NCBI GenBank assembly: GCA_045600445.1
Contig: JAZRXZ010000052.1
Location: forward strand, 18,771-82,770
Origin: Bacteroidales bacterium
GTDB taxonomy: Bacteria > Bacteroidota > Bacteroidia > Bacteroidales > UBA3663
DNA: 64,000 bases
Direction of reading: 5' to 3'
Within the stretch, counting starts at the first letter, position 1. Every line of letters starts with the position of its first letter. Below, one piece after another: positions 1,785 to 51,434 of the stretch. The position numbers were made by a program, and so were the translations under genes. The notes beneath the pieces were generated by a model. That model made no database searches and was not told where the DNA came from. It saw only the letters and a program-made list of their open reading frames with translations.

Positions 1785-4019
1785 TTATTTGATTCTAATC
1801 TCCGCTGTCTGTCGTATATCCTCCGACGATGCGCCGATGAGGAGCTTGACAGGGAGCGATTCGCACACGAAGGCGTGGCGAGCCTCATCCCAGTAGGAGA
1901 GATCTTCCTTGTTGATCGTGAGGGTGACGAGAGACGTCTCGCCAGCCTTGATGTTGACACGAGCGAAGGCGCAGAGCTGCTTGAGAGGGCGGCTCACACG
2001 GCTCTCAGGATAGGTGGCGTAGACCTGGACGACCTCATCGCCATCGAGGCTGCCCGTATTCTTGACAGGCACGGTGAGGGTGACGCTCTGCTTGTCCTGC
2101 TTGAGGTCCTGCACGGCGCTGTACTGGAAGGTTGTGTAGCTCAATCCGTAGCCGAACGGGTAGAGGACGGGCTGATTGAAGTACTGGTAGGTGCGGCCAT
2201 GACGGATATCATAGTCGAGCATGTCGGGCAGGTCAGTGATGTCGCGCACCCAGGTCTGAGTGAGGCGGCCTGCTGGATTGACCTTGCCGAGCAATACATC
2301 GGCCAAGCCCGAGCCCTGCTCCTGGCTGCAGTGGGTGAGGTGCACGATGGCTGGGAGGTGCTCCTGACTCCAGTTGATGGTGTATGGGAAGCTGCTGACC
2401 AAGACGAGCACGGTGTTCTTATTGGCCTTATACATCTGGCGCACGAGGTCTTCGTCAGGGAGCTGGAGGGACTTACGGTCGACGGCTTCGCGTCCGTCGC
2501 TGGGCACAGGAGAGACCTTCCAGTTGCGCGTCGTACCGTATGGATGGTTGCCCACACACACGAGCACCACGTCAGCCTCCTTGGCGAGTCGCTCTGCTTG
2601 GCTCATGGCGTTGCTCGATGCATAGAGGATTTCTACGTCCTTTCCCCACAGATTGCCATTTCGCCCATCTGTTGAGAGCGCCATCTCCAACCCCCGACGT
2701 ATAGTGATGCGATAAGAAGGCTCGCCACCATACCAGTCCGTATCGATGCTGTCAGCCCACTGGCCAATGACTGCGATTTTCTTGATCTTGTCGGCCTTGA
2801 GCGGGAGGATTCCATCGTTCTTGAGCAATACTACCGACTTGGCCGTCACCTCGCGGACGTACTGACGGATGGCAGGGTCTTCCCAAGGCTTAGGCGCCGT
2901 GACGTCCTGTCCGATCTGGAGGTAAGGATTCCGGGTGTCAGGGCCATCGAGCAAACCGAGCTTGAGGGCGGTGTAGAGGTTGCCTCGGATGGCCTTGTCA
3001 ATCTCAGCCTCGGTGACGAGTCCGCGCTGGATGGCTTCGACAATCGACTCACGATAAGGGCTGAGGAACTGACCCACCGTGGTCTTGACCGCAGCCGCTG
3101 AGCCCTCGACCTGCGAAGGGTAGGCGTGATGCGCGTTGACGAGGAGACGCAGGGCGCTACCATCGGTACAGATAATGCCCTTGACGCCCCACTGCTGGCG
3201 TGCGATGGTGTCGTTGGCCGGATGCACCATCATCACGGTGCCGTTCCACTTGTTATAAGCGTCCATGAAACTCTGCGCGCCGCCACGGGTGATACCCATG
3301 TAGAACGGGCGGCTGTAGTACTCGCGGAAGAGGCGCATATCGAAATCGGAAGACGTGCTGTCGCGCCCATCCTCGTTGCTGTTGGCCAGGAAGTGCTTCA
3401 TGAGCGATGCGGTCTTCCAGTAGCGTGGATCATCGCCCTGGAGGCCCCGGATGATGGCCGTGGAGAGGGTGCCGGTGAGGAAGGCGTCTTCGCCAAAGCT
3501 CTCCTCGGTGCGTCCCCAGCGAGGGTCGCGGGCAAGGTCAGCATTCGGAGCACGCATCACGAGCGAATGCTGAGGGCTGAGGGGGCTCTGGAAGTACCAA
3601 CGAGCCTCTTCGGCGGTGATTTCGCCCACGCGCTTGAGGATGTCTACGTCCCAGGTCTCACCGAGGCCGTAAGCCTGCGGGAAGACGGTGGTAGGCTTTG
3701 GGTCGAGGACTTGGGTGCCATCGGGCTTAGTAATCTTGTTCCAACCGCCAGCGCCGCCCAGGGTTAGGCCGTGGAGGCCTTCGAAGTGGCTGCTGTTAGG
3801 AATGCCAAGGCGTGGCACGCCGAGATTGGTGGAGAGGAGGTCAATCTTCTCATCGAGGGTGAGCTGCTTGAGGAGCAGGTCGATGCGCTGATCATCGGTC
3901 TTCTTGAGGTTGCGGAAGGCCAGGGAGTCAGCGGCAGGCTTGGCCTGGAGGGATTGCACAGATCCCCAAAATGAGGATGTGAGGGCCAGGGTGACAAGCA
4001 AGGTAAGGAGCTTTTTCAT
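1785..4019 (-). CDS. Glycoside hydrolase family 3 (beta-glucosidase/beta-xylosidase type), secreted
   Basis: Signal peptide (MKKLLTLLVTLALTSSFWG). GH3 N-terminal region (LTLDEKIDLL...GIPNSSHFEGLHGL), KGIICTDG region and a C-terminal sandwich plus Fn3-like tail. Confidence 0.9.
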   Translation of the reverse strand: MKKLLTLLVTLALTSSFWGSVQSLQAKPAADSLAFRNLKKTDDQRIDLLLKQLTLDEKIDLLSTNLGVPRLGIPNSSHFEGLHGLTLGGAGGWNKITKPDGTQVLDPKPTTVFPQAYGLGETWDVDILKRVGEITAEEARWYFQSPLSPQHSLVMRAPNADLARDPRWGRTEESFGEDAFLTGTLSTAIIRGLQGDDPRYWKTASLMKHFLANSNEDGRDSTSSDFDMRLFREYYSRPFYMGITRGGAQSFMDAYNKWNGTVMMVHPANDTIARQQWGVKGIICTDGSALRLLVNAHHAYPSQVEGSAAAVKTTVGQFLSPYRESIVEAIQRGLVTEAEIDKAIRGNLYTALKLGLLDGPDTRNPYLQIGQDVTAPKPWEDPAIRQYVREVTAKSVVLLKNDGILPLKADKIKKIAVIGQWADSIDTDWYGGEPSYRITIRRGLEMALSTDGRNGNLWGKDVEILYASSNAMSQAERLAKEADVVLVCVGNHPYGTTRNWKVSPVPSDGREAVDRKSLQLPDEDLVRQMYKANKNTVLVLVSSFPYTINWSQEHLPAIVHLTHCSQEQGSGLADVLLGKVNPAGRLTQTWVRDITDLPDMLDYDIRHGRTYQYFNQPVLYPFGYGLSYTTFQYSAVQDLKQDKQSVTLTVPVKNTGSLDGDEVVQVYATYPESRVSRPLKQLCAFARVNIKAGETSLVTLTINKEDLSYWDEARHAFVCESLPVKLLIGASSEDIRQTAEIRIK

Positions 4020-41253: not shown

Positions 41254-42777
41254 ATGTTTACACAGCAAGATCTTGAAGTGTTTGCCCAGCGTGGCACTAC
41301 AGTTGAGAAAGTAGAGAGCCAGCTTAAGTCTTTTGAGACTGGTTTCCCTTATTTGAAGCTTAAAGGCGCAGCTTCTCCAGAGTATGGTATCATGATTATC
41401 GATGAGGATGGTGCCAAGTATTATCAGGACCTCTGGCAGAAGTATCTCCAGGCTGATAAGACTATTTTGAAGTTCGTTCCTGCATCTGGTGCGGCCAGCC
41501 GTATGTTCAAGAACCTCTTTGAGTTCCTTGAGGCTCCTTATGATGTTCCTACCAATGACTTTGAGAAGAAGTTCTTCGGTGGCATTGAGCAGTTCGCTTT
41601 CTATCCAGAGCTCGACGAGGTTTGCCAGAAGAACGAAGGCAAGGGTATCAAGGATCTCATGGCTGCTGGTCAGTATAAGGCTGTCGTTGGTAATCTGCTC
41701 CTTGAGAAGGGTCTCAACTATGGTCAGCTTCCAAAGGGTCTTCTGACTTTCCACCGTTCTGCTTCAGGTGTTCGCAAGGCTTTCGAGGAGCATCTTGAGG
41801 AAGGTGCAGTTTATGCAGCTAATGGTAAGGGTAATGTAAATCTTCACTTTACTGTAAGTCCTGATCATCTTCCATTGTTCGAGAAGCTCGTTGCTGAAAA
41901 GAAGGCAGCATACGAGCAAAAGTATGGTGTAAAGTATAACATCACCTTCTCAGTTCAGAAGGCTAGCACAGATACCATCGCTGCAAACATGGACAATACT
42001 CCATTCCGCGACGATAAGGGTAATCTCCTCTTCCGTCCAGGTGGCCACGGTGCATTGATCGAGAACCTTAATGAGCAGGAGGCTGATGTTATCTTCGTCA
42101 AGAATATTGATAATGTGGTACCTGAGAAGAAGAAGCAGGCTACCGTCGCATACAAGCAGATCATTGGTGGTGTTCTCGTTGGTCTCCAGCAGAAGATCTT
42201 CAGCTACCTCCAGCAGCTTGAGAGCGGTCACTATACCCACGAGCAGCTCATCGATATGCTCTACTTCCTCCAGACCAAGCTCTACATCAAGAATCCTGAT
42301 ACTAAACTCCTTGAGGATAGCGAGCTCGCTCTCTACATCAAGAATAAGCTCAACCGCCCACTCCGCGTCTGTGGTATGGTTAAGAACGTAGGTGAGCCTG
42401 GTGGCGGTCCATTCATCGCACAGTCTCCTGATGGAACCTATCAGAGCCAGATCCTTGAGTCAAGTCAGATCGATCAGAACGATCCTGAGTCTGTTGCAAT
42501 GTTCAAGGAGGGTACTCATTTCAACCCAGTTGACCTCGTATGTGCAGTACGCGATAAGAATGGTAAGCCATTCGATCTCCTCAAGCATGTTGATCCAATG
42601 ACCGGCTTCATTTCATATAAGTCTAAGAGCGGTAAGGAACTGAAGGCTCTTGAGTTGCCAGGACTCTGGAATGGCGCTATGAGCGATTGGAATACAGTTT
42701 TTGTAGATGTTGACCTTCTTACCTTCAACCCAGTTAAGACCGTTAACGATCTTCTCCGTCCAATGCATCAGTATTAA
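41254..42777 (+). CDS. DUF4301-like protein (UDPGP-like nucleotidyltransferase fold suspected)
   Basis: ~507 aa. The N-terminus FTQQDLEVFAQRGTTVEKVESQLKSFETGFPYLKL recalls DUF4301 proteins of Bacteroidota (from memory). Confidence 0.5.
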   Translation: MFTQQDLEVFAQRGTTVEKVESQLKSFETGFPYLKLKGAASPEYGIMIIDEDGAKYYQDLWQKYLQADKTILKFVPASGAASRMFKNLFEFLEAPYDVPTNDFEKKFFGGIEQFAFYPELDEVCQKNEGKGIKDLMAAGQYKAVVGNLLLEKGLNYGQLPKGLLTFHRSASGVRKAFEEHLEEGAVYAANGKGNVNLHFTVSPDHLPLFEKLVAEKKAAYEQKYGVKYNITFSVQKASTDTIAANMDNTPFRDDKGNLLFRPGGHGALIENLNEQEADVIFVKNIDNVVPEKKKQATVAYKQIIGGVLVGLQQKIFSYLQQLESGHYTHEQLIDMLYFLQTKLYIKNPDTKLLEDSELALYIKNKLNRPLRVCGMVKNVGEPGGGPFIAQSPDGTYQSQILESSQIDQNDPESVAMFKEGTHFNPVDLVCAVRDKNGKPFDLLKHVDPMTGFISYKSKSGKELKALELPGLWNGAMSDWNTVFVDVDLLTFNPVKTVNDLLRPMHQY

Positions 42778-42780
42778 TAT

Positions 42781-44055
42781 ATGAATATGAAACATCGCCT
42801 CATTGCCATGAACTTTCTGGAGTTCGCGGCATGGGGTTCCTATCTCACATCTATGGGTGCCTACCTTGCTTCGGCAGGGTTAGGCACCGATATTGGTAAT
42901 TACTATGCCCTTCAAGGCGTAGTATCTATTTTTATGCCCGCTATTATGGGCATTGTTGCTGATCGATGGGTACAAGCACAACGTCTGCTGTCGTTCTGTC
43001 ATTTCATGTCGGCATTGTTTATTGGTCTTGCAGCCTATATCGGTCTCTCAGCAGGCGATGGTGCTGTTAATGGTCAAGCTCTGTTCTGGGCATATACTGG
43101 CAGTGTGGCGTTCTATATGCCGACCCTTGCACTGAGTTATTCTGTTGCTTATACAGCGCTTGACAAGGCTGGTCTCGACACCGTCAAGGCTTTTCCTCCA
43201 ATCCGTGTGTTCGGCACCGTAGGCTTCCTTTGTGCAATGTGGCTTGTCGACCTTGCAGGTTGGCAGAATACTCCTGTTCAGTTTGTGCAGTCGGCAGTGA
43301 TCAGTGTGATCATGGCTCTGTACTCATTGACCATGCCTGCTTGTCCAGTAGGTGGTGATAGCCAGAAAAAATCTTTCATCGAAGCATTGGGACTCAAGGC
43401 TTTTGCTCTTTTCAAGCAGAAGCAGATGGCCATCTTCTTTATCTTCTCATTCTTCCTGGGTGTCTGTCTTCAGATTACCAATGGCTATGCTAATCCGTTC
43501 ATTCAGTCATTTGGCGACAATCCAGAGTTCCAAGGACTCTTCTTCGTTGAGCATAGTAATATTCTCATCTCACTTTCTCAGGTGTCTGAGACTTTGTGTA
43601 TCCTTCTTATCCCATTCTTCCTCAAGAAGTATGGCATCAAGATTGTTATGCTTATTGCTATGTTAGCATGGGTGGCACGTTTTGGATTCTTCGGCCTCGG
43701 TGATCCAGGTACTGGAGTATGGCTTTTCATCCTTTCTTGCATCTTCTATGGTGTTGCTTTCGATTTCTTCAATATCTCAGGCTCTCTGTTTGTCAACGAG
43801 AAGACCGATATCTCTATCCGTTCATCTGCACAAGGACTCTTTATGTTAATGACCAATGGTCTCGGTGCTACAGTTGGTTCACTTAGTGCCAAGGCTGTTA
43901 TCAATAATTATGTCTATGCGGATGGTCTTTCTGTAGCTGAACAGGCTTCAGGCTGGCAGACATCCTGGTATATTTTCGCTGCTTATTCACTTGTAATGGC
44001 TATTGCTTTTGCTGTACTTTTCCAGTATAAGCACACGCCAGACAAGTCGAAATAA
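42781..44055 (+). CDS. MFS nucleoside:H+ symporter (NupG/XapB-like)
   Basis: 12-TM MFS protein. The N-terminus RLIAMNFLEFAAWGSYLTSMG is typical of the NHS family. Confidence 0.75.
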   Translation: MNMKHRLIAMNFLEFAAWGSYLTSMGAYLASAGLGTDIGNYYALQGVVSIFMPAIMGIVADRWVQAQRLLSFCHFMSALFIGLAAYIGLSAGDGAVNGQALFWAYTGSVAFYMPTLALSYSVAYTALDKAGLDTVKAFPPIRVFGTVGFLCAMWLVDLAGWQNTPVQFVQSAVISVIMALYSLTMPACPVGGDSQKKSFIEALGLKAFALFKQKQMAIFFIFSFFLGVCLQITNGYANPFIQSFGDNPEFQGLFFVEHSNILISLSQVSETLCILLIPFFLKKYGIKIVMLIAMLAWVARFGFFGLGDPGTGVWLFILSCIFYGVAFDFFNISGSLFVNEKTDISIRSSAQGLFMLMTNGLGATVGSLSAKAVINNYVYADGLSVAEQASGWQTSWYIFAAYSLVMAIAFAVLFQYKHTPDKSK

Positions 44056-44078
44056 TCGGAGGTTCATTTCAGTCCTCC

Positions 44079-44112
44079 ACTAGGTCAAGAAAACCCTATA
44101 AAAAACTTAATG
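44079..44112 (+). promoter_or_regulatory. Candidate preQ1-I riboswitch (translational) in front of queD
   Basis: CUAGGUCAAGAAAACCCUAUAAAAAACUUAAUG aligns in register with the class I aptamers of T. tengcongensis and B. subtilis. Matches are P1 UAGG/CCUA, conserved U after P1, ACCC, an A6 tract and P2 AAG/CUU. The AUG follows directly. Confidence 0.6.
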
Positions 44113-44448
44113 ATGTATTACGTCAAGAAATCAATGGAGATCTCAGGTAGTCACTACCTGAGACTCTCACACCAGAGCAAGTGTGAAAACCTGCATGGTC
44201 ACAACTGGATTGTCACCGTCTATTGCAAGTCTAAAGAACTTGACGAGGATGGTATGGTTGTAGATTTTACAGAGGTAAAACGCTTGGTGCATGGTGTACT
44301 CGATCATCAGGATCTCAATGCTATCCTTCCGTTCAATCCTACAGCAGAAAACATCGCTTACTGGATTTGTGGACGTGTTCCTAATTGCTATAAGGTAGAT
44401 GTGCAGGAGAGCACAGGCAACGTAGCTACCTACGAAAAGGACGAATAA
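44110..44448 (+). CDS. queD: 6-carboxy-5,6,7,8-tetrahydropterin synthase
   Basis: Size of 112 aa, with CENLHGHNW and DHQDLN motifs. Confidence 0.9.
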   Translation: MMYYVKKSMEISGSHYLRLSHQSKCENLHGHNWIVTVYCKSKELDEDGMVVDFTEVKRLVHGVLDHQDLNAILPFNPTAENIAYWICGRVPNCYKVDVQESTGNVATYEKDE

Positions 44449-44449
44449 C

Positions 44450-45055
44450 ATGCGCGTCAACGAGATCTTTTATTCACTGCAAGGCGAGGGCCGATATACC
44501 GGTACACCTGCTGTCTTTGTTCGTCTATCAGGATGCAACATGCGCTGCTGGTTCTGCGATACCGATTTCTCCGCCTATCAGGAAATGTCCGAAGAACAGA
44601 TTGTTGACGAAGTCCTGCGCTATCCTTGCGTTCACGTGGTTATTACTGGTGGTGAACCGACGATACAGTTGACACCCTCACTTGTCGACCTTCTGCACCA
44701 GCATGGCAGGTACGTCATGATGGAGACGAATGGCAGTTTGCCATTGGCAGAAGGCTGTGATGTCGACTGGATTACTTGTTCTCCGAAGCTCGAAGATCTG
44801 GTAAACGGTAATCGTCGCATTAAGACTATTCGTATTCAGCGTATTGATGAACTTAAAGTCGTTTATGAAGGCGATGGTAAGCAGGATATGAGTCTTTACG
44901 AAGCTTTTGAAGCTAAGGAATACCGTTTGCAGCCATGTGATGTCAAGGATTCTAAGCGCAATCAGCAGATTCTTGAACAAACGATCGATTACATCTTACA
45001 TCATCCGAAATGGAAACTATCTCTTCAAACCCACAAGATAATCAACGTCCGATGA
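44450..45055 (+). CDS. queE: 7-carboxy-7-deazaguanine synthase (radical SAM)
   Basis: EIFYSLQGEG and CNMRCWFC (CX3CX2C). Confidence 0.9.
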   Translation: MRVNEIFYSLQGEGRYTGTPAVFVRLSGCNMRCWFCDTDFSAYQEMSEEQIVDEVLRYPCVHVVITGGEPTIQLTPSLVDLLHQHGRYVMMETNGSLPLAEGCDVDWITCSPKLEDLVNGNRRIKTIRIQRIDELKVVYEGDGKQDMSLYEAFEAKEYRLQPCDVKDSKRNQQILEQTIDYILHHPKWKLSLQTHKIINVR

Positions 45056-45630
45056 CACCCGTCTCTGATGAAGAACTCCAGCAGGCTATTGTGACCATTC
45101 TGCGAGCCATCGGAGAGGATCCTACCCGTGAAGGCCTTGTTGGCACTCCTGATCGTATCTGTCGTATGTATAAGGAGTTATTCCGTGGTTATGATTCTGC
45201 ACAGAAACCTAGGATTACCACCTTTGAAAATGACTCTCACAGCACCGAGTTGGTCTTCGATGCGGGTGATTTCTATTCGATGTGCGAGCATCACATGATG
45301 CCCTTCTTTGGTAAATACTACTTTGCATATATGCCTAGCGACGAAGGTCGTATCCTTGGCATCAGCAAGATTGCTCGTGTCGTCGGTTATTGTGCAGCAC
45401 GCCTGCAATTGCAAGAACGTCTTGCACGCGACATCATCGATATGCTTGACGATGCTCTCGACCATGAGGCTCTTGGCTTTGCTATTGTTCTCAAAGGTCA
45501 GCACATGTGCAAGAGCATGCGTGGTGTCAAGAATCCTGGTGCGATGTCTGTTTCTTATTACACAGGTATCTTTAAGCAAGATGCTGCTACTCGCAATGAG
45601 TTCCTGCAGATGATTAAGATGAATGACTGA
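45052..45630 (+). CDS. folE: GTP cyclohydrolase I, divergent paralog linked to queDE
   Basis: [14 protein letters not shown] and HMC motifs. The start is set at the ATGA overlap with the queE stop (MTPVSDEE...) rather than at 45010. Confidence 0.85.
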   Translation: MTPVSDEELQQAIVTILRAIGEDPTREGLVGTPDRICRMYKELFRGYDSAQKPRITTFENDSHSTELVFDAGDFYSMCEHHMMPFFGKYYFAYMPSDEGRILGISKIARVVGYCAARLQLQERLARDIIDMLDDALDHEALGFAIVLKGQHMCKSMRGVKNPGAMSVSYYTGIFKQDAATRNEFLQMIKMND

Positions 45631-50469: not shown

Positions 50470-50850
50470 TCATAAGCCAAGTTTTTCTAATCCTATTTTG
50501 ACATAATCTTGTTCTAAATCATTTGGCTTAAAAATTGAATCACCAAGTTTTATGAGGTCTAAATCAATAGGTACAATTCCTTGCTTTTTAGACTCTATTG
50601 AACGGCCCAAATCAGATTCGAAATGTTTTAGTTTATCTCTTATTTCTAAATATGAAAGCTCGGTTTCACCAATAGCTACTTCATTATAATACTTCTTACC
50701 TACTCCACTTCCTACTCCATCTGTTTCATAGTGATGCGAGAATTGAACATCACCATGAAAAAGGTCTATTAATAAAATCTCTGCCTTGTTAAGATTCAAT
50801 AAAGCTTCAACAAGACAGAGATTAGTTCCTATGCTAATAATGAATTTCAT
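50470..50850 (-). CDS. folK: HPPK (FolK)-like protein, short form (126 aa)
   Basis: It aligns by eye to HPPK blocks: IISIGTNL (IAIGSNL), YETDGVG (YRTPPLG), [13 protein letters not shown]...DLGR and PIDLDLI (LDLDI). The usual C-terminal (V)PHP region was not seen. It overlaps folE by 4 nt. Confidence 0.55.
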
Positions 50851-51434
50851 TTAGATATCAAGTTAAGGAATTCTTCTCTTGTCTTAATATCAGTGAATGC
50901 ACCAGTAAAGTCACTTGTAGTTGTAGTTGCATTCATTTTCTGAACTCCTCGCATTTGCATACATAGATGACTTGCTTCGACAACAACCATTACTCCAAGC
51001 GGATGCAAAGTTTCTTGTATACATTCTTTTATCTGTAAAGTCAATCTTTCCTGGACCTGAAGTCGACGTGCAAAAACTTCTACAACACGAGGTATCTTAC
51101 TAAGTCCTACAATATATTTATTCGGAATATAAGCGACATGAACTTTTCCAAAGAAAGGCAACATATGGTGTTCGCACATGCTATAGAAATCTATATCTTT
51201 TACGATAACCATTTGTTGGTAATCCTCACGGAACATAGCCGAACGAAGTATCTCACATGGATCTTGAGCATATCCCTGAGTAAGGAACTGAAGAGACTTA
51301 GCAACCCTCATAGGAGTTTTGATTAATCCCTCACGATCCTTATCTTCGCCAACAAACTCAAGCATCTGTGAAACATTGTCAGCCATTCTTTCGAGTAATT
51401 CCTCCTTATTTACCATCTTATCTGTTAATTTCAA
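50847..51434 (-). CDS. folE: GTP cyclohydrolase I (canonical housekeeping type)
   Basis: [22 protein letters not shown] and [15 protein letters not shown]. Confidence 0.9.

Follow-up and report, generated by a model that had tools for sequence, protein, structure and literature searches.

A 64,000-nucleotide stretch of a Bacteroidales genome (GenBank assembly GCA_045600445.1, contig JAZRXZ010000052.1, positions 18,771 to 82,770; referred to here as the window, with positions counted from its first letter) carries a short structured element directly upstream of queD. We consider it very probable, from comparative sequence analysis, that this element (44081-44108, + strand) is a class I, type II-like pre-queuosine 1 (preQ1) riboswitch aptamer, which would serve, from the leader of the queD-queE-folE operon, as a translational OFF switch that turns down the making of queuosine precursors in a Prevotella-like gut or rumen member of the Bacteroidales. 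The class is a known one and the element is an ordinary member of it, and nothing reported here alters what is known of the preQ1-I class. What is mildly new is a subfamily that scores below the Rfam threshold, and the coincidence of its L3 tail with the upstream-adenine signal used for translation initiation in Bacteroidia.

Architecture and conservation of the probable aptamer

An earlier note on this DNA quoted the sequence at 44080-44112 and placed it in register with class I preQ1 aptamers. A direct readout of these positions gave the same letters, CUAGGUCAAGAAAACCCUAUAAAAAACUUAAUG. The aptamer is 28 nt long and takes the form of an H-type pseudoknot, running from the 5' strand of helix P1 to the 3' strand of helix P2. 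The 5' strand of P1, UAGG (44081-44084), pairs with its 3' strand, CCUA (44095-44098), in a hairpin which is also predicted by RNAfold, and G44084 and C44095 would form the pair at the floor of the ligand pocket. The next outward position, C44080/U44099, is a mismatch, which leaves the window with a P1 of 4 bp. After P1 comes the L1 uridine U44085, the counterpart of the conserved U6 that contacts preQ1 (PMC11625349), invariant in 38 of 38 sequences. The 5' strand of P2 is AAG (44087-44089), preceded by C44086 at the position of a fourth pair, which is mismatched in the window. L2 (AAAAC, 44090-44094) ends in C44094, the predicted specificity cytosine (for the role of this base see PMC11625349), and the AAC that precedes CCU is invariant in the family. 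The L3 tail, UAAAAAA (44099-44105), contains a run of six adenines (44100-44105), including the putative pocket adenine that adjoins P2. The 3' strand of P2, CUU (44106-44108), would double as the expression platform; CUU is invariant in 11 sequences selected by protein, and was fixed by the search pattern in those drawn from metagenomes.

The start of queD follows almost at once. A single nucleotide, A44109, separates CUU from two tandem, in-frame AUG codons (44110-44115), so that P2 abuts the start of queD as the earlier note described, with a gap to the first AUG of one nucleotide rather than the two it gave. Homologues have one start AUG where the window has two. The second AUG (44113) aligns with the MYY with which the homologous proteins begin, and is on this comparison the likelier start of queD; counted from it, the L3 tail lies at -14 to -8. 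Extra AUGs close to start codons are under-represented in Bacteroidetes (Baez et al.). In the RNAfold prediction both of these start codons are masked, UGAUGU (44111-44116) being paired with ACGUCA (44120-44125).

To obtain a sample that was unbiased for the element, 80 Bacteroidales queD loci were fetched by QueD protein alone. The element stands flush against the queD start in ten of them (L001, L010, L011, L012, L013, L018, L025, L069, L070 and L075), and no other copy was seen on the two strands of the 408 kb. These ten are labelled as Prevotella, Prevotellaceae, Bacteroidaceae or unclassified Bacteroidales metagenome-assembled genomes. A scan of metagenome contigs, with a pattern that fixed the core but set no constraint on the outer two pairs of P1 or on the fourth pair of P2, returned 100 matches, about half of them followed 3-7 nt downstream by a QueD open reading frame (ORF) of the form MYY...HGHNW. 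In total, 38 distinct queD-linked sequences were parsed segment by segment into an alignment (A2) with gaps written as N, which replaced a MAFFT alignment of the leaders (A1) whose stems were out of register. One match, L140, was left out as no QueD ORF follows it.

The three pairs that vary, two in P1 and one in the P2 pseudoknot, all covary across the 38 sequences. The fourth pair of P1 is paired in all 38 (U-A in 32, C-G in five and A-U in one), and the fifth and outermost in 34 (U-A in 18, A-U in 16), the C.U of the window being one of four mismatches. The fourth pair of P2 is paired in 37 (G.U in 20, U-A in ten, G-C in five, C-G in one and A-U in one), the only mismatch being the C.A of the window. 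Cells of the alignment are paired in 98.5% of cases against 87.0% in shuffles (0 of 500 as high). Shuffling brings the covariation score from 0.270 down to 0.076 (again 0 of 500), and sliding the partners brings it to 0.025 or less. P1 is paired in 97.8% of cells and its GG/CC is invariant. Since the variable pairs covary beyond both shuffles and slid partners, both helices of the predicted pseudoknot are supported.

Covariance-model searches agree on the register. At gathering thresholds, Rfam 15 gave no match in the whole window. A permissive search of 44000-44200 placed RF00522 (PreQ1) at 44077-44115 (+) with 13.4 bits, against a gathering score of 39; its expectation value (E) is 2.2 after multiplication by 4227 families, which for RF00522 by itself, in 402 nt, comes to about 5e-4. 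The earlier note had named a score below the gathering threshold as one of two things that together would count against a riboswitch, and the score is indeed below it. Higher scores were found for the leaders of L069, L075 and L070 (32.4, 32.3 and 29.3 bits), with E of 0.011-0.064 across 126 kb and all families; two of these relatives stand at 0.011 after correction for the 126 kb and the 4227 families. The leaders of L010 and L025 scored 15.5 and 13.9 bits. RF00522 was the best or near-best Rfam family, in the same register, at all six leaders tested. Weak matches at the site to mir-980, STnc420 and mir-455, which are eukaryotic or enterobacterial families, were dismissed.

A second covariance model, R1, was built from 27 relatives, with the window and L001 excluded, and run on the window with filters off. 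Its sole significant match lies at 44077-44110 (25.5 bits, E 0.0022), the next best reaching 13.1 bits (E 1), and there are no further copies before other genes of the window. Across the 80 loci R1 matched at queD leaders only, with none before other genes. The metagenome matches that are not followed by queD were rejected as chance ones; they lack P1 and P2 pairing or lie inside genes, and score 15-27 bits with R1. One such match, inside a 770-aa MetH-like ORF, recurs 13-fold. A separate match with no link to queD, L104 4070-4107 (+), has a full 5-bp P1 (CCAGG/CCUGG) and a P2 of GAAG/CUUU. R1 gives it 27.4 bits, and it may be a true preQ1-I riboswitch of another, more GC-rich lineage.

The group of Prevotella-lineage sequences is a coherent one, which at 13-32 bits with RF00522 would be missed by annotation at the gathering threshold. 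Alignments A2 and A3, together with R1, could seed a better model.

Class, subtype and rival readings

The pocket of class I aptamers is made of a cytosine 5' of the P1 3' strand, the L1 uridine, an adenine of the A-rich L3 and the closing G-C of P1 (PMC11625349). The counterparts here are C44094, U44085, A44100-44105 and G44084-C44095, and these columns are invariant in the 38 sequences. The element also has, below the gathering score, the features of structure and location expected of RF00522: a P1 on a G-C floor (four of five pairs in the window), an H-type P2 pseudoknot (three canonical pairs in the window, the fourth being C.A), and a place in the leader of queuosine genes, 5' of queD-queE(-folE) in the window and in ten of ten related loci, and before queD in the linked metagenome matches. 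The class I assignment of the earlier note is supported by a covarying P1 and P2, by invariant pocket residues and by the three relatives that score 29-32 bits.

Subtypes are told apart by the dinucleotide before the P1 3' strand, which is UC in type I and AC in types II and III (PMC11625349). In our family AAC|CCU is invariant, a single U follows P1, and no fixed C interrupts the L3 adenines; some members have a C early in L3, the position of which is not fixed. Type I does not fit, as AC is found in every sequence and any of the four bases may follow the L1 uridine. We class the element as type II-like, as are the aptamers of Thermoanaerobacter tengcongensis (Tte) and Bacillus subtilis, because it combines AAC with a single U after P1. 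The Tte aptamer, which acts on translation, likewise has a single U after P1, and a P1 loop of 10 nt, equal in length to that found here. It also shares the H-type pseudoknot, the AC, the A-rich L3 and a short P2 whose 3' strand abuts the initiation region, so that in both the aptamer itself is the expression platform. P2 of Tte has non-canonical steps too (PMC11625349). The differences are that P2 in our family ends in CUU(N), without Shine-Dalgarno bases, in hosts whose ribosomes ignore the Shine-Dalgarno sequence; that P1 is 4 bp in the window; and that the members tested score 13-32 bits, under the gathering score of RF00522.

The queCDEF riboswitch of B. subtilis, a transcriptional one, has the same aptamer type and controls queuosine-precursor genes including queD and queE. 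It differs in having a downstream intrinsic terminator, for which the short gap between P2 and AUG here leaves no space, and the operon in the window, queD-queE-folE, is without queC and queF. The type I riboswitch of Carnobacterium antarcticum, with two stacked ligands and indirect occlusion of the Shine-Dalgarno sequence, resembles the proposed switch in a logic that does not depend on burying that sequence by Watson-Crick pairing; type I, however, has UC, a UU after the P1 5' strand and a conserved C in the L3 adenines, as against AC and a single U here. The type III riboswitch of E. coli is alike in carrying AC where specificity is set, in binding its ligand 1:1 and in acting on translation, but has a UU motif, a pyrimidine-rich loop and a fully buried AAGG Shine-Dalgarno sequence, and is nearly confined to Pseudomonadota.

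The earlier note thought the phylum worthy of remark. It is already on record for the class: Bacteroidota are listed as a source of class I, type I riboswitches, and a similar distribution is given for type II (PMC11625349, a 2024 JBC review citing McCown 2014 and Roth 2007). No specific literature on preQ1 in Prevotella or Bacteroides, or at queD, was found, published class I alignments not having been compared.

A number of observations weigh against a working riboswitch at 44081-44108. No leader tested, that of the window included, reaches the 39 bits of the RF00522 gathering score. Six of the nine pairs never vary. The search pattern imposed them on the metagenome sequences, but they are likewise invariant in the 11 protein-selected ones. 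Chance metagenome matches selected by the pattern also reach 15-27 bits with R1, so the R1 score of the window counts only together with its exact position. For the bare core, AGGU..AAG..ACCCU, the chance expectation is 0.21 matches per window, and 19 of 100 shuffles contain one; with this expectation and an Rfam score below the gathering threshold, the window alone cannot decide the identity of the element. The closest QueD relatives, L002-L008 (83-86% identical), are without it. The window copy itself is among the two weakest members of the family, with 25.5 bits against 39-60 for other relatives and 20.7 for L001. Its P1 is cut to 4 bp by the C.U at the outer pair and its fourth P2 pair is C.A, two mismatches that the earlier note did not flag, and its linker from the L1 uridine to AAG is one nucleotide shorter than in the family. 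The 90 nt upstream of it contain no canonical -7 promoter box.

One rival reading is that the family is a true preQ1-I riboswitch of which the window holds a decaying or non-responsive relic, whose two mismatched pairs and shortened linker would leave queD expressed constitutively. The window is alone among the 38 sequences in being mismatched at the fourth P2 pair and is one of four at the outer P1 pair, it scores with L001 far under the other relatives, and its nearest relatives lost the element or never had it. The leader also differs from that of L001 by several indels despite QueD proteins that are 98-99% identical. The core was nevertheless kept in L001 through these indels, which argues for continued selection, and in the window the pocket residues and the three core P2 pairs are all intact. 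The Tte aptamer functions with two canonical pairs in four P2 steps (PMC11625349), and a short L3 tail is found in L025 and L164 as well, L025 still reaching 39.1 bits. We regard a relic as unlikely, and favour a functional riboswitch, of which the window copy may respond poorly.

The physiological signal could also be another 7-deazapurine, the likeliest being preQ0 from the branch fed by the operon, and this we hold to be improbable. QueD, QueE and GTP cyclohydrolase I lead to CDG (7-carboxy-7-deazaguanine) and to preQ0, not to preQ1 itself, and type II Tte binds preQ0 only about 17-fold more weakly than preQ1 (PMC11625349). The window proteins scanned included no queF product, the first 28 kb of the window having been left unannotated; the only Pfam QueF match is sub-threshold and lies inside the second GTP cyclohydrolase I of the window. 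The pocket residues, on the other hand, are those of preQ1-binding class I aptamers, and the characterised class I riboswitches at queCDEF genes all respond to preQ1 (PMC11625349).

A ligand-independent structured leader, or a chance likeness between an A-rich Bacteroidia initiation region with a small hairpin and the aptamer, is the most far-fetched reading: it would account for the score under the Rfam threshold, for a core expected 0.21 times per window and for A-rich tracts before start codons, which are generic in Bacteroidia (PMC6847099), but composition cannot explain covariation in both helices, pseudoknot included, nor the placing of the element exclusively at queD in ten of 80 loci and in about half of 100 metagenome matches, the E of 0.011 for relatives, or the failure of matches away from queD to pair in P1 and P2 or to lie outside genes.

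Proposed translational control without a Shine-Dalgarno sequence

The distance from CUU to AUG is 0-7 nt, with a mode of 5, in 37 of 37 leaders measured; in L001, which has a single AUG, the A of this codon is the last base of P2. Since 0-7 nt leave no room for a terminator or any other platform, control must be exerted at translation initiation, and the proposal of the earlier note, a translational OFF switch in a leader lacking a Shine-Dalgarno sequence, gains support from the leaders as a group. Of the 37 leaders, 24 have a TAnnTTTG box, which we take to be the Bacteroides -7 promoter element, in the 90 nt that precede P1. The distance is mostly 8-42 nt, so the aptamer is often near the 5' end of the messenger RNA (mRNA).

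Each L3 position from -14 to -9 is an adenine in 26-36 of the 37 sequences. Initiation without Shine-Dalgarno pairing is promoted in Flavobacterium johnsoniae by adenines at -14 to -11 (-12 and -13 above all), at -6 and at -3, and by low structure from -20 to +20 (PMC6847099). The A-tract of the family at -14 to -9 overlaps the initiation-promoting adenines at -14 to -11.

A mechanism can be proposed on this basis. Abundant preQ1, and to a weaker extent preQ0, would settle on the G44084-C44095 floor, paired with C44094 and contacted by U44085 and an L3 adenine. Binding would stabilise P2 (AAG 44087-44089 with CUU 44106-44108) and lay the L3 adenines into the groove of P1. With P2 of the window ending 1-4 nt from the start codon and L3 at -14 to -8, the folded state would withdraw the unstructured A-rich initiation region that is used in place of a Shine-Dalgarno sequence, and translation of queD would fall. 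Translation of queE would probably be lowered too, because its AUG begins one nucleotide after the queD stop codon. We infer that ligand binding takes the L3 adenines and the segment from -8 to -5 out of reach of the ribosome. The part hidden would thus differ from that in Tte, being the A-rich stretch from -14 to -5, joined in some members by the AUG. The further step, that the L3 adenine tract doubles as the upstream-adenine initiation signal of Bacteroidia and is switched OFF by groove folding and P2 pairing with no Shine-Dalgarno sequence hidden, seems to us about evenly balanced. If true, it would mean that the expression platform of a riboswitch has been re-tuned to a different mode of start-site selection. 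The family offers a natural system in which to study how a translational riboswitch works where ribosomes ignore the Shine-Dalgarno sequence.

Immediately before the aptamer, and after the stop codon of the symporter gene described below, lies a hairpin (44058-44078, +) of GGAGG, an 11-nt loop and CCUCC, with a folding energy of -7.6 kcal/mol (z -2.0), set off from the aptamer by one nucleotide. L001, a close relative, lacks it, and 18 of 37 relatives have a hairpin of variable, unconserved sequence that ends 0-4 nt before P1. We treat the hairpin as an optional accessory helix; it could alternatively stabilise the mRNA 5' end or belong to the 3' structure of the gene before it. That it serves the symporter gene as an intrinsic terminator seems less likely, as no U-run follows the hairpin and it is missing in L001.

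Gene neighbourhood and other queD leaders

The operon predicted to be under control (44113-45630, +) is defined by Pfam matches and gene order. It begins with queD (44113-44448, +; PTPS, E 6e-28), followed by a radical-SAM protein gene in the position of queE (44450-45055, +; Radical_SAM) and by a folE paralogue (45010-45630, +; GTP_cyclohydroI) that overlaps queE. Seven of the ten related loci have the order queD-queE-folE after the element and the remaining three have queD-queE. Look-ups of the exact proteins for QueD (from both starts), QueE and FolE found no identical protein.

Directly 5' of the riboswitch, on the same strand, are a DUF4301 gene and a nucleoside:H+ symporter gene, which lie 3 nt apart at 41254-44055 (+), with the symporter stop codon at 44053-44055. 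The same arrangement is found upstream in L001. As no canonical promoter box separates the symporter gene from queD in the window (the 90 nt upstream of the aptamer were checked), queD may be co-transcribed with the nucleoside transporter gene.

The window contains two GTP cyclohydrolase I genes, 42% identical to each other: the operon copy at 45010-45630 (+) and another at 50847-51434 (-), which adjoins an HPPK/folK gene (50470-50850, -). This suggests that one copy serves queuosine and the other folate, a separation in which one GTP cyclohydrolase I would be under the riboswitch and the folK-adjacent copy would not.

A different hairpin, not present in the window, is found in 28 of the 80 queD leaders, from Bacteroides, Phocaeicola, Parabacteroides, Mediterranea and Tannerellaceae. 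It lies at L015 2434-2463 and at the equivalent place in 27 others (L016, L020, L022, L023, L027, L028, L031, L033, L037, L040-L042, L044, L045, L047, L048, L051-L054, L059, L065-L068, L071 and L074), directly after the TAnnTTTG box and 28-50 nt before the queD AUG. A stem of 5-7 bp closes an invariant 12-nt loop, GAGGUGACAUUA, which contains the Shine-Dalgarno-like GAGGUGA. Compensatory changes are seen at every stem pair, pairing holds in 129 of 130 cells across the five inner pairs, and the covariation score is 0.615 against 0.276 in shuffles (0 of 500 as high), falling to 0.167 or less when slid; G.U pairs occur on the + strand only. This hairpin and the preQ1-I element never co-occur in the 80 loci. 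No Rfam match at E<=10 was obtained in the two loci tested, and no description was found in the literature. We consider it a candidate for an undescribed cis-regulator of queuosine-precursor synthesis. Two further ideas about it were rejected: pairing of the loop with the start codon region, for which duplex energies are no better than those of shuffles, and a conserved upstream mini-ORF, as AUG or GUG is absent from several stems. In the Parabacteroides contig L023, upstream of queD, 2024-2218 (-) gives a sub-threshold match to the Bacteroides small RNA BTnc060 (72.5 bits, the gathering score being 228.9; E 2.9e-09).

Many queD leaders have neither element and instead carry short tandem repeats, which occupy the 60-100 nt upstream and run up to the AUG (L002, L003, L004, L019, L032, L036, L049, L062, L076 and L078). 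The repeat units include TTGTTAATTG, AACTGAN, GGGACTA, GTGAAAG and TTTTACTTGATATAA, and the motif A[AG]ACT[AG] averages 0.45 occurrences per 70-nt leader, compared with 0.05 in background.

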